5,879 bases of DNA from Escherichia coli. Lineage in GTDB: Bacteria > Pseudomonadota > Gammaproteobacteria > Enterobacterales > Enterobacteriaceae. The translations under genes were made by a program, and so were the position numbers. Position 1 is the stretch's first letter, and each line of letters opens with the position of its first letter. Shown in pieces: positions 3,496-5,781 of this stretch. The stretch is from NCBI RefSeq assembly GCF_003334815.1, contig NZ_QOWO01000071.1; one strand, given 5' to 3'. The notes under the pieces were generated by a model. That model was not told where the DNA came from. It saw nothing but the letters and a program-made list of their open reading frames with translations, and did not search any database.

Positions 3496-3630
3496 GTTAT
3501 TTACCTTACTTTACGCGCGCGTAACTCTGGCAACATCACTACAGGATAGCGGTCAATTTACCTCCTCAAACGCAACGCAAACCTAGAACGGCTTCGGCCA
3601 ACTATTAATCAATACATGCCAGGTTTTACT

Positions 3631-5781
3631 ATGGATACTAAAAAGATATTCAAGCACATACCCTGGGTGATTCTCGGAATCATCGGTGCATTCTGCCTCG
3701 CGGTAGTTGCATTACGTCGGGGGGAGCACGTCAGCGCCCTGTGGATCGTGGTCGCCTCTGTGTCGGTGTATCTGGTGGCGTATCGCTACTACAGTCTGTA
3801 CATCGCCCAGAAGGTGATGAAACTCGACCCCACGCGCGCGACGCCTGCGGTTATTAACAACGACGGTCTGAACTACGTTCCGACCAACCGTTACGTGTTG
3901 TTTGGTCACCACTTCGCCGCTATCGCCGGTGCTGGTCCGCTGGTGGGTCCGGTTCTCGCCGCGCAGATGGGCTACCTGCCTGGCACGCTGTGGCTGCTGG
4001 CGGGGGTCGTGCTGGCCGGTGCGGTTCAGGACTTTATGGTGCTGTTTATCTCCTCTCGCCGTAATGGCGCATCTCTTGGTGAGATGATCAAAGAAGAGAT
4101 GGGACCAGTACCGGGGACTATCGCGCTGTTTGGCTGTTTCTTAATCATGATCATCATCCTCGCCGTCCTGGCGCTGATTGTGGTTAAAGCCCTGGCCGAA
4201 AGTCCGTGGGGTGTCTTCACCGTTTGCTCAACCGTACCGATTGCGCTGTTTATGGGTATCTACATGCGCTTTATTCGTCCGGGGCGTGTGGGTGAAGTCT
4301 CTGTCATTGGTATCGTGCTGCTGGTTGCCTCTATCTACTTCGGTGGCGTGATTGCTCACGATCCGTACTGGGGTCCGGCACTGACCTTTAAAGACACCAC
4401 CATTACCTTCGCGCTGATTGGCTATGCGTTTGTTTCCGCACTGCTGCCAGTGTGGCTGATCCTCGCACCGCGCGACTATCTGGCAACCTTCCTGAAAATC
4501 GGCGTTATCGTCGGCCTGGCGCTGGGTATCGTGGTGCTGAACCCGGAACTGAAAATGCCTGCCATGACCCAGTACATTGACGGTACTGGCCCGCTGTGGA
4601 AAGGCGCTCTGTTCCCGTTCCTGTTCATCACCATCGCCTGTGGTGCGGTATCTGGCTTCCACGCGCTGATCTCTTCCGGTACGACGCCAAAACTGCTGGC
4701 TAATGAAACCGACGCGCGTTTCATCGGCTACGGCGCAATGCTGATGGAGTCCTTCGTGGCGATTATGGCGCTGGTTGCTGCGTCCATCATCGAACCGGGT
4801 CTTTACTTCGCGATGAACACCCCGCCTGCTGGCCTTGGCATCACCATGCCTAACCTGCATGAAATGGGGGGCGAGAACGCGCCGATCATCATGGCGCAGC
4901 TGAAAGACGTTACCGCACACGCGGCAGCGACCGTCAGCTCCTGGGGCTTCGTGATTTCGCCAGAGCAGATCCTGCAAACCGCGAAAGACATTGGTGAGCC
5001 TTCTGTCCTGAACCGTGCAGGTGGTGCGCCGACGCTGGCGGTAGGTATCGCTCACGTGTTCCACAAAGTGCTGCCGATGGCTGACATGGGCTTCTGGTAT
5101 CACTTCGGTATTCTGTTCGAAGCACTGTTCATCCTGACCGCGCTGGATGCGGGTACCCGTTCTGGCCGCTTTATGCTGCAAGACCTGCTGGGTAACTTCA
5201 TCCCGTTCCTGAAAAAAACCGACTCTCTGGTTGCCGGTATCATCGGTACTGCGGGCTGTGTGGGTCTGTGGGGCTACCTGCTGTATCAGGGCGTGGTCGA
5301 TCCGCTGGGCGGCGTTAAGAGCCTGTGGCCGCTGTTCGGTATTTCCAACCAGATGCTGGCAGCCGTAGCGCTGGTACTGGGCACCGTTGTGCTGATTAAG
5401 ATGAAGCGCACCCAATACATCTGGGTAACTGTTGTTCCGGCTGTATGGCTGCTTATCTGCACCACCTGGGCGCTGGGCCTGAAACTGTTCAGCACCAACC
5501 CGCAGATGGAAGGCTTCTTCTACATGGCAAGCCAGTACAAAGAGAAGATTGCTAACGGTACTGACCTGACGACGCAGCAGATTGCCAACATGAACCACAT
5601 CGTTGTGAACAACTACACCAACGCAGGTCTGAGTATTCTGTTCCTGATTGTGGTGTACAGCATCATCTTCTACGGTTTCAAAACCTGGCTTGCGGTGCGT
5701 AACAGCGACAAACGTACTGACAAAGAAACACCGTACGTTCCAATCCCGGAAGGCGGCGTGAAGATCTCTTCGCACCACTAA
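3631..5781 (+). CDS. btsT: CstA-family high-affinity pyruvate/H+ symporter BtsT (YjiY), 716 aa from the ATG at 3631 (in-frame alternative ATG at 3616 would give 721 aa)
   Basis: Long ORF encoding a very hydrophobic polytopic membrane protein with many TM segments and CstA-like architecture. The MDTKKIFKHIPWVILG... N-terminus and 716-aa length match my recollection of E. coli YjiY/BtsT. It is divergent from tsr and preceded by BtsR repeats and a CRP site. Neither candidate ATG has a strong SD. Confidence 0.9.
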   Translation: MDTKKIFKHIPWVILGIIGAFCLAVVALRRGEHVSALWIVVASVSVYLVAYRYYSLYIAQKVMKLDPTRATPAVINNDGLNYVPTNRYVLFGHHFAAIAGAGPLVGPVLAAQMGYLPGTLWLLAGVVLAGAVQDFMVLFISSRRNGASLGEMIKEEMGPVPGTIALFGCFLIMIIILAVLALIVVKALAESPWGVFTVCSTVPIALFMGIYMRFIRPGRVGEVSVIGIVLLVASIYFGGVIAHDPYWGPALTFKDTTITFALIGYAFVSALLPVWLILAPRDYLATFLKIGVIVGLALGIVVLNPELKMPAMTQYIDGTGPLWKGALFPFLFITIACGAVSGFHALISSGTTPKLLANETDARFIGYGAMLMESFVAIMALVAASIIEPGLYFAMNTPPAGLGITMPNLHEMGGENAPIIMAQLKDVTAHAAATVSSWGFVISPEQILQTAKDIGEPSVLNRAGGAPTLAVGIAHVFHKVLPMADMGFWYHFGILFEALFILTALDAGTRSGRFMLQDLLGNFIPFLKKTDSLVAGIIGTAGCVGLWGYLLYQGVVDPLGGVKSLWPLFGISNQMLAAVALVLGTVVLIKMKRTQYIWVTVVPAVWLLICTTWALGLKLFSTNPQMEGFFYMASQYKEKIANGTDLTTQQIANMNHIVVNNYTNAGLSILFLIVVYSIIFYGFKTWLAVRNSDKRTDKETPYVPIPEGGVKISSHH
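3939..3946 (+). other. Chi site (5'-GCTGGTGG-3') on the + strand, inside btsT
   Basis: Exact octamer match at 3939-3946. Confidence 0.6.

Follow-up and report, generated by a model that had tools for sequence, protein, structure and literature searches.

The interval 3540-3633 of the 5,879-nt stretch of Escherichia coli DNA analysed in this work (hereafter, the window) very probably corresponds to the downstream end of the btsT promoter, which depends on BtsR and CRP, followed by the transcription start site (TSS) and the whole 88-nt 5' UTR of this gene. The window covers the E. coli tsr/btsT region, and its positions 3341-3700, which include the btsT promoter and leader, are base-identical to K-12 MG1655; the only three differences between the window and this strain, two substitutions and one 1-bp indel, are all located further upstream. 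The identity of the gene as btsT/yjiY, proposed in a preliminary description of this DNA, was borne out by the annotation, and the CDS (3631-5781, + strand) encodes a pyruvate/H+ symporter of 716 aa, according to both the ORF list and the annotation.

This promoter/leader stretch is already characterised in E. coli, and nothing new or unusual is found here. Compared with the K-12 btsT promoter/leader (Kraxenberger 2012, Behr 2014), the sequence is identical and the interval displays no difference; the BtsR repeat, the CRP site, the TSS and the CsrA repression are as reported. The identity with MG1655, the coordinate mapping, the conservation pattern, the in-frame stops of the orthologues and the motif statistics were obtained in this work, and the TSS and the regulation by CsrA, CRP and BtsR were taken from the literature. 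Overall, the features listed in the preliminary description were present within one base of their assigned positions, and their interpretation was supported in part, failing on most points.

Promoter and transcription start site of btsT

The btsT TSS (+1) is the A at 3543 on the + strand, directly before GGA, equivalent to position 4591367 of NC_000913.3. This coordinate derives from a secondary table, namely an entry in supplementary file 11 of Reg-Seq which, citing Kraxenberger 2012, gives 4591367 on the reverse strand for yjiY as the 'only experimentally validated TSS'. Since the MG1655 btsT ATG at 4591279 corresponds to window position 3631 and the sequences are identical, the TSS is placed at 3543. 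Another file of the same supplement gives a TSS at 4591397 (window 3513), with which the CsrA-like motif discussed below would be transcribed in full (+28 to +37). The supplements of Kim 2012 contain neither an entry nor coordinates for yjiY, and no coordinate matching the btsT TSS was present among the matches listed for the Cappable-seq supplements.

The most distal regulatory element is a CRP site, TGTGATATGAATCACA (3403-3418, + strand), a perfect TGTGA-N6-TCACA centred at -132.5 from the TSS and the single match to this pattern in the window, where 0 were expected. According to the literature, btsT requires cAMP-CRP, and Reg-Seq places the btsT CRP site outside the -115 to +45 region that it covers; the site at 3403-3418 falls outside this region only when the TSS is at 3543, and the Reg-Seq statement thus fits this start.

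Downstream of the CRP site, the direct repeat for BtsR (YehT, a LytTR-type regulator), ACCGCTTA-N13-ACCACTCA on the + strand, occupies 3467-3495, that is, -76 to -48 from the TSS. Both boxes match the ACCRCTYA pattern, ACCGCTTA at 3467-3474 and ACCACTCA at 3488-3495, and both are kept across genera. A 13-bp spacing has reportedly been described for the BtsR repeat, in agreement with the spacing observed at btsT. With ACC[G/T]CT[C/T]A-like boxes separated by a 13-bp spacer and located upstream of the core promoter, the region displays the arrangement of a BtsR-dependent sigma70 promoter, and a conserved BtsR motif has been reported for yjiY promoters (PMC5552118). Further upstream, gCCGCTCA at 3448-3455 (+ strand; aACCGCTCA in relatives), kept in the alignment of 14 relatives, constitutes a candidate third BtsR-like box.

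We infer that the btsT -10 element is the extended -10 TGgCAACAT at 3528-3536 (+ strand; hexamer CAACAT, 3531-3536): the pattern TGnCAnnAT is found in 15 of the 15 aligned promoters, and its last base lies 7 nt 5' of the reported TSS, which is the proper distance. RNA polymerase would thus use this extended -10, with transcription starting at A3543. A sigma70 consensus scan of the window missed the btsT promoter, an expected outcome given its dependence on an activator, and the same sigma70/terminator scan of the window found no terminators. Two other core-promoter candidates were rejected: a sigma54 promoter, suggested by a conserved CTGGCA, as E. coli and Enterobacter lack the GC of the -12 element at the spacing that such a promoter needs; and a second CAnnAT (CAGGAT, 3542-3547) as -10, as the conserved TG and the reported TSS fit the first hexamer.

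This architecture resembles that of other LytTR-controlled promoters, such as those of YpdB-yhjX and AgrA P2/P3, which display direct repeats spaced by about two turns of the helix and located immediately 5' of a poor -35 (PMC5552118), as well as a weak -10 that needs the activator; btsT differs from them in having in addition the far-upstream CRP site at -132.5 and the possible third box.

The start codon and its Shine-Dalgarno sequence

Two in-frame ATG triplets, 3616-3618 and 3631-3633, are found 15 nt apart, both before the first hydrophobic segment of the translation, as had been described. The start-codon ambiguity drawn from this arrangement was not genuine, and conservation, in-frame stops in orthologues and RefSeq annotation all indicate that ATG 3631 (+ strand), which overlaps the A(N)GGA motif AUGGA (3631-3635), is, on these comparative grounds, the real btsT start codon and not really an ambiguous one. 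The start ATG is conserved in 35 of 35 orthologues, and an in-frame stop is located 3-24 nt upstream of it in at least 10 of them, 12 being counted (L003, L013, L015-17, L021, L022, L025, L029, L032, L033 and L035). The RefSeq/PGAP start is likewise 3631 in every strain checked, namely K-12, MG1655, IHE3034, O157:H7, JB2 and MB98. The main use of this result is annotation hygiene, the start of the 716-aa BtsT being confirmed.

The claim that neither ATG has a canonical Shine-Dalgarno (SD) sequence is literally true, but ATG 3631 is preceded by an AGGU conserved in sequence and spacing across genera. This SD, located within CCAGGU at 3621-3624 (+ strand), 6 nt before ATG 3631, is weak: its predicted pairing with the anti-SD (-3.2 kcal/mol) is no better than at 23% of window positions. 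Nevertheless, CCAGGUyU-N-ATG is kept across the Escherichia/Citrobacter/Enterobacter/Pluralibacter group, and ATG 3631 with an upstream AGGU (7-10 nt) is conserved across Enterobacterales; this SD would drive initiation at ATG 3631.

Regarding ATG 3616 (+ strand), the triplet is confined to E. coli and E. albertii, apart from a single chance occurrence in Phytobacter, its anti-SD pairing of -1.5 kcal/mol is at background level (window mean, -1.7), and it coincides with the right-hand junction at which an ERIC element is inserted in other strains. Translation from this position reads MPGFT-MDTKKIFKHIPWVILGIIGAFCLAVVAL... and reaches the btsT frame without an intervening stop. It would be a recent, Escherichia-specific in-frame triplet devoid of an SD, rather than the start. 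Its use as an alternative start, yielding a BtsT isoform extended by MPGFT, is highly improbable: although the reading frame is continuous and both E. coli and E. albertii keep the triplet, even at the ERIC junction, pairing with the anti-SD is indistinguishable from background, nearly all other genera lack the triplet, many of them with in-frame stops there, the RefSeq annotations checked all use 3631, and the CCA GGU that would be read as 'codons' is in fact the SD for 3631.

Structure and strain dimorphism of the leader

The 88-nt btsT 5' UTR (3543-3630, + strand) is weakly structured and folds less well than its shuffles, with an MFE of -12.9 kcal/mol when the shuffles average -16.2 (z = +1.15). 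No convincing consensus structure was obtained by alifold of the leaders (-1.6 kcal/mol), and the Rfam search yielded no family matching the btsT 5' UTR. A permissive Rfam threshold returned a Pistol ribozyme on the minus strand (3403-3441), scoring 20.4 bits where the gathering score is 34.5 (E = 0.18), and this sub-threshold match was judged to be a chance hit on the CRP palindrome.

The small GGC-UUCG-GCC hairpin pointed out in the preliminary description is real, although it spans 3590-3599 (+ strand) and not 3590-3598. Alone, this cUUCGg hairpin folds at -4.5 kcal/mol, a value equalled by 7 of 200 shuffles, and when the whole leader is folded, the MFE structure does not include it. Of 8 close relatives, 6 preserve it, two of them with a G-C to A-U change, which is not significant, as 101 of 500 shuffles do as well; it is retained only in the Escherichia/Citrobacter clade and is absent in Enterobacter. 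Another conserved element, the ACCUCCUC box (3560-3567, + strand), is identical to the anti-SD core and is kept in the leaders of Citrobacter, Pseudocitrobacter and Enterobacter; it pairs weakly with the 5'-terminal AGGA (-3.9 kcal/mol, z = -0.5). The idea that the SD is sequestered, either by this box or by the hairpin through its 3' arm, found no support, given the alifold energy mentioned above and the lack of covariation. Overall, the leader is weakly structured, the small UUCG hairpin (3590-3599) being followed by the weak but conserved SD (3621-3624).

The btsT leader is dimorphic in complete E. coli genomes: 61% carry the 88-nt leader, as in the window, and 38% carry an ERIC insert. This element, of ~123 nt, is located between the UUCG hairpin and the SD, and adds two further GGA motifs in a long hairpin. 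Many natural isolates carry an ERIC-expanded btsT leader that K-12 lacks. In combination with the Escherichia-specific GGA at +2 to +4 and the AUGGA at the start codon, this dimorphism raises the idea, to which we assign a low probability, that CsrA- or structure-dependent translational control of high-affinity pyruvate uptake is lineage-specific and differs between E. coli strains.

The CsrA-like motif and the action of CsrA on btsT

The string tACAGGATAg, noted in the preliminary description for its resemblance to the CsrA consensus, is present at 3540-3549, and not at 3540-3548, with its GGA at 3544-3546. The motif proper, ACAGGATAG (3541-3549, + strand), spans -2 to +7, and only AGGAUAG belongs to the RNA. 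As to whether the string is transcribed, the reported TSS lies inside the motif and not downstream of 3548: the 'UAC' is untranscribed promoter DNA and the mRNA begins with 5'-AGGAUAG. The GGA core itself, at +2 to +4, is transcribed under either listed TSS. However tempting its resemblance to a CsrA site, the string is the region where transcription starts at a well-studied promoter.

The reading of the string as a CsrA site was not sustained, as it straddles the TSS, occurs at chance frequency, has a GGA specific to Escherichia and an ACA that varies among strains. The 5.9-kb window contains 5 copies of ACAGGA where 2.2 would be expected, a count of 5 being reached in 19 of 200 shuffles, and the 2 GGAs in the transcribed leader plus first codons (108 nt) compare with 1.0 expected (P = 0.26). 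The GGA at 3544-3546 is conserved in E. coli and E. albertii; at this position 14 relatives have GCA or ACA, the orthologues reading CAGCAT or CAACAT, and GGA is found only in Escherichia. The base at 3541 varies among Escherichia strains (A, G or T), and most relatives have no GGA within the last 100 nt upstream of the ATG. The CsrA SELEX consensus is said to be RUACARGGAUGU. When aligned to it by the GGA, the string matches 6 of the 12 positions, and its ACA abuts the GGA without the intervening purine. Presentation of the 5' GGA in a loop was not observed, as MFE and local folds pair it with UCCU in the weak stem of -3.9 kcal/mol (z = -0.5) formed with the ACCUCCUC box. The second GGA, 89 nt away, overlaps the start codon (3633-3635), and the AGGU of the SD contains no GGA.

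That btsT has been reported as CsrA-regulated is correct: post-transcriptional repression by CsrA is attributed to Behr 2014 in PMC5431176, PMC7730263, PMC10653868 and PMC5936718. In a csrA mutant, btsT ribosome footprints rise by 2.2 log2 and mRNA by 1.55 log2 (PMC5694010 Supplementary Data 2), with a non-significant TE change of 0.67 log2 and no significant change in mRNA half-life (PMC5694010). In Potts 2017, yjiY is scored No for CLIP-seq, as well as for Edwards, Kulkarni and Sowa, the other datasets of predicted or co-purified CsrA targets tabulated there; the negative CLIP-seq result is weak for btsT, because the cells were in mid-exponential phase, when this gene is barely expressed. 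The published repression of btsT by CsrA is real but most likely independent of the motif at 3541-3549, and it may operate through the AUGGA at the start codon, or indirectly through btsR.

One explanation, to which we grant somewhat less than an even chance, is a largely indirect effect, in which CsrA binds the yehU-yehT (btsS-btsR) junction, leading to less BtsR and consequently to less btsT transcription. CLIP-seq peak_205 covers the end of yehU together with the SD and start codon of yehT, which is listed as 'repressed by CsrA', while btsT itself has no peak (Potts 2017); in addition, btsT mRNA and footprints rise together in the csrA mutant, with TE and half-life without significant change (PMC5694010). 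On the other hand, the effect is called post-transcriptional in the Jung laboratory papers, and a csrA mutant also alters carbon flux, pyruvate or cAMP levels, so that other indirect routes exist.

Direct repression through the AUGGAU at the start codon, with or without the SD, by blocking 30S binding and with 3541-3549 being irrelevant, is possible but rather unlikely. Apart from AUGGA, the initiation region contains no GGA, and all MD-type orthologues keep this motif, although its conservation is confounded by Met-Asp coding; more distant orthologues have a GGA inside the SD instead (AAGGAU or AAGGAA). The description of the effect as post-transcriptional in the literature would agree with this route, as would the repression of the paralogue cstA via four sites, one of them overlapping its SD (Potts 2017 Supplementary Fig. 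11). However, btsT would offer a single site, predicted to lie in a weak stem, and has no CLIP peak (Potts 2017), and its TE change is not significant while its mRNA is up by 1.55 log2 (PMC5694010). The cstA leader (Dubey 2003) is a close comparison, as it belongs to a paralogous CstA-family transporter (61% identity) that is also CRP-activated and CsrA-repressed; it differs in its four CsrA sites, one on the SD at -11 to -9, and in its CLIP-seq peak (Potts 2017), whereas the AGGU SD of btsT contains no GGA, and this gene has just two GGAs, separated by 89 nt, and lacks a peak. For Csr control of pyruvate uptake, the places to look at are the AUGGA at the start codon and the btsS-btsR junction with its CLIP peak, rather than 3541-3549.

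It is improbable that the 5'-proximal (AC)AGGAUAG is itself a functional CsrA site, at which a dimer, perhaps bridging to AUGGA, would repress translation or alter 5'-end-dependent decay. In its favour, the GGA at +2 to +4 is transcribed under both listed starts and conserved within Escherichia, a second A(N)GGA overlaps the start codon, btsT is described as post-transcriptionally repressed by CsrA in the papers cited above, and footprints increase by 2.2 log2 in the csrA mutant (PMC5694010); against it, the motif is cut by the TSS, is absent in Citrobacter, Enterobacter and other orthologues, occurs at chance frequency and has its GGA in a predicted weak stem and not in a loop, btsT lacks a CLIP peak and is not predicted by the Kulkarni algorithm (Potts 2017), and the TE change of 0.67 log2 is not significant (PMC5694010). 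We infer that CsrA does not act through the 5'-terminal GGA. The distance of 89 nt between the two GGAs would also exceed the bridging range of CsrA, which is reportedly of roughly 10-63 nt. Binding of CsrA to the extreme 5' end of an mRNA is said to occur in flhDC, a point in favour of a 5' site, and the flhDC mRNA resembles that of btsT in having a GGA within its first few nucleotides. There, CsrA binding reportedly protects the mRNA from RNase E and activates expression. In contrast, CsrA represses btsT, and loss of csrA leaves the half-life of the btsT mRNA without significant change (PMC5694010).

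Transcription start and promoter of btsT

The segment 3540-3633 corresponds to the edge of the known btsT core promoter plus the 5' UTR, and as such is already known. According to the ORF list, the window carries tsr (minus strand, 1590-3254) and a plus-strand ORF at 3616-5781, and a 646-nt query covering the intergenic region was matched in 5390 of 5426 complete Escherichia coli genomes, with btsT annotated beneath the match. Every base from 3341 through 3700 is identical to K-12 MG1655, and the intergenic differences from that strain (two substitutions and one 1-bp indel) are all located upstream of 3341. 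The sequence features listed in the preliminary description are all there, with coordinates correct to within one base.

The annotated Reg-Seq table (supplementary file 11), citing Kraxenberger et al. (2012), places the yjiY (btsT) transcription start, as the only one validated experimentally, at 4591367 on the reverse strand, while the Reg-Seq gene list (supplementary file 1) gives 4591397, equivalent to 3513 (PMC7567609). Since the btsT ATG at 4591279 in MG1655 corresponds to 3631, the former coordinate falls at 3543, the A immediately 5' of GGA, resulting in a leader of 88 nt. Two independent observations agree with this position. The presumed extended -10 element TGnCAnnAT, conserved in a 15-promoter alignment and present in E. 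coli as TGgCAACAT (3528-3536, plus strand), ends 7 nt upstream of 3543; in addition, the CRP site is stated to fall outside the mutagenised region -115..+45 of Reg-Seq (PMC7567609), and the perfect CRP palindrome detected by pattern matching at 3403-3418 (centred at -132.5) does so only if transcription starts at 3543. Of both coordinates, only 4591367 fits these observations; because 4591397 would bring the CRP site inside the mutagenised region, we treated it as an error, but flag it. On the minus strand at 3403-3441, Rfam gave a hit below threshold to the Pistol ribozyme (20.4 bits; gathering score 34.5; E = 0.18), which overlaps this palindrome and was judged to be due to chance.

Pattern matching also located the BtsR boxes ACCGCTTA-N13-ACCACTCA at -76..-48. 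A third BtsR-like box, gCCGCTCA (3448-3455; aACCGCTCA in relatives), is conserved in the alignment and precedes the published direct repeat by 19 bp, giving three boxes with spacings of 19 and 21 bp. The sequence upstream of the boxes (about 3255-3448) differs among E. coli strains: between tsr and btsT, O157:H7 harbors an additional hypothetical ORF of 180 aa, and in JB2 and MB98 hpaC (4-hydroxyphenylacetate monooxygenase reductase) replaces tsr as the neighbour. The breakpoint of this variable region is near 3448, so those strains may lack the K-12 CRP site or carry another sequence in its place.

The CsrA-like string and CsrA control

Several papers citing Behr et al. (2014) report that CsrA represses btsT/yjiY post-transcriptionally (PMC5431176, PMC7730263, PMC10653868, PMC5936718); the preliminary description had mentioned CsrA regulation of the gene as reported, and this control is already in the literature. 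The CsrA-like string proposed as the site, tACAGGATAg, is present at 3540-3549, but it is cut by the transcription start at 3543, so that UAC is untranscribed and the RNA starts with AGGAUAG. Nor does the motif stand out statistically: the window holds 5 copies of ACAGGA where 2.2 would be expected (equalled by 19 of 200 shuffles), and GGA is found twice in the transcribed leader together with the first codons (108 nt; 1.0 expected, P = 0.26). It is also not conserved: at position 3541, K-12 has A, whereas IHE3034, O157:H7, JB2 and MB98 have G and E. albertii has T; relatives read CAGCAT or CAACAT where E. coli reads CAGGAT, and most related leaders have zero GGA upstream of the ATG. Judging from the promoter alignment, the GGA of the motif is a lineage-specific C-to-G change. 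In local folds this 5' GGA is weakly paired with the conserved UCCU of the ACCUCCUC box rather than exposed in a loop, and the sole other nearby GGA (3633-3635), 89 nt from the first, belongs to the start-codon sequence AUGGAU. Most likely, the string suggested as a CsrA site arises as a by-product of the sequence at which transcription starts; the btsS-btsR junction and the start-codon AUGGA are the better candidates.

In the integrated transcriptomics of Potts et al. (2017), yjiY was no CLIP-seq target, nor was it co-purified (Edwards), predicted (Kulkarni) or found by Sowa, whereas four CsrA sites, one of them on the SD, and a CLIP peak are listed for its paralogue cstA (PMC5694010). The negative CLIP result is weak, given that CLIP was performed at mid-exponential phase and btsT induction is transient and restricted to late-exponential phase. 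In the csrA mutant, yjiY ribosome footprints (+2.22 log2) and mRNA (+1.55 log2) rose significantly, with no significant change in translation efficiency (0.67 log2) or half-life; furthermore, CLIP-seq peak_205 (Supplementary Data 1) extends from the end of yehU (btsS) over the SD and start codon of yehT (btsR), which was scored as CsrA-repressed (PMC5694010). Through the yehT peak, CsrA could affect btsT indirectly by way of BtsR; the peak, together with the footprint and mRNA pattern, makes this route at least as well supported as the direct one.

Translation start

Two in-frame ATGs, at 3616 and 3631, precede the first hydrophobic segment (translation MPGFT-MDTKKIFKHIPWVILGIIGAFCLAVVAL), and the choice between them had been considered ambiguous. 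Annotation, conservation, SD pairing and upstream stops together resolve it to 3631. RefSeq/PGAP annotates the equivalent ATG in K-12, MG1655 (NP_418774.2, 716 aa), IHE3034, O157:H7, JB2 and MB98, and it was found in 35/35 Enterobacterales orthologues taken from species-representative genomes. ATG 3616 is limited in this set to E. coli and E. albertii, besides one coincidental case in Phytobacter, and in 12 orthologues an in-frame stop precedes the conserved ATG by just 3-24 nt, leaving no space for an N-terminal extension. The suggestion that both ATGs lack a canonical SD holds only in the literal sense. At 3616, anti-SD pairing (-1.5 kcal/mol) is at background level (window mean -1.7); 3631 is preceded by AGGU (3621-3624), whose pairing is just -3.2 kcal/mol, with sequence and spacing nonetheless conserved. 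CCAGGUyU(N)ACU before the ATG is nearly invariant in the Escherichia/Citrobacter/Enterobacter/Pluralibacter group, and the CCA GGU... triplets downstream of ATG 3616 are the SD of ATG 3631.

Structure and dimorphism of the leader

The whole leader folds more weakly than its shuffles (z = +1.15), Alifold gave no convincing conserved structure on the leader alignment, and no Rfam family matched it. The small hairpin noted earlier, GGCttcgGCC, is present at 3590-3599, with -4.5 kcal/mol in isolation (equalled by 7 of 200 shuffles), and is not part of the whole-leader MFE fold. Besides E. coli, three Citrobacter keep it, as do Pseudocitrobacter and Superficieibacter, the latter two with the outer G-C changed to A-U; Enterobacter leaders lack it, and its covariation is not significant (101 of 500 shuffles equal). 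On these comparisons, we regard it as a minor, clade-specific, yet real element.

The ACCUCCUC box has the same sequence as the core of the 16S anti-SD and precedes the C/A-rich tract CAAACGCAACGCAAACC (3560-3583). This feature is conserved in Citrobacter, Pseudocitrobacter and Enterobacter, and the region, which can be likened to GcvB targets, could be a putative translational enhancer or sRNA target.

Strain alignment revealed in JB2, MB98 and E. albertii (L085 753-891, L086, L002) an insertion of roughly 123 nt net between the hairpin and ATG 3616, at 3600-3615, which we take to be an ERIC/IRU element from its match to the two ERIC PCR primer sequences (20/22 and 19/22 positions). The btsT 5' UTR is dimorphic: using junction-specific queries, 2062 of the 5426 complete E. 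coli genomes carry the ERIC allele, and 3318 the short allele of the window. In the ERIC allele, the leader gains a long hairpin and two further GGA motifs.
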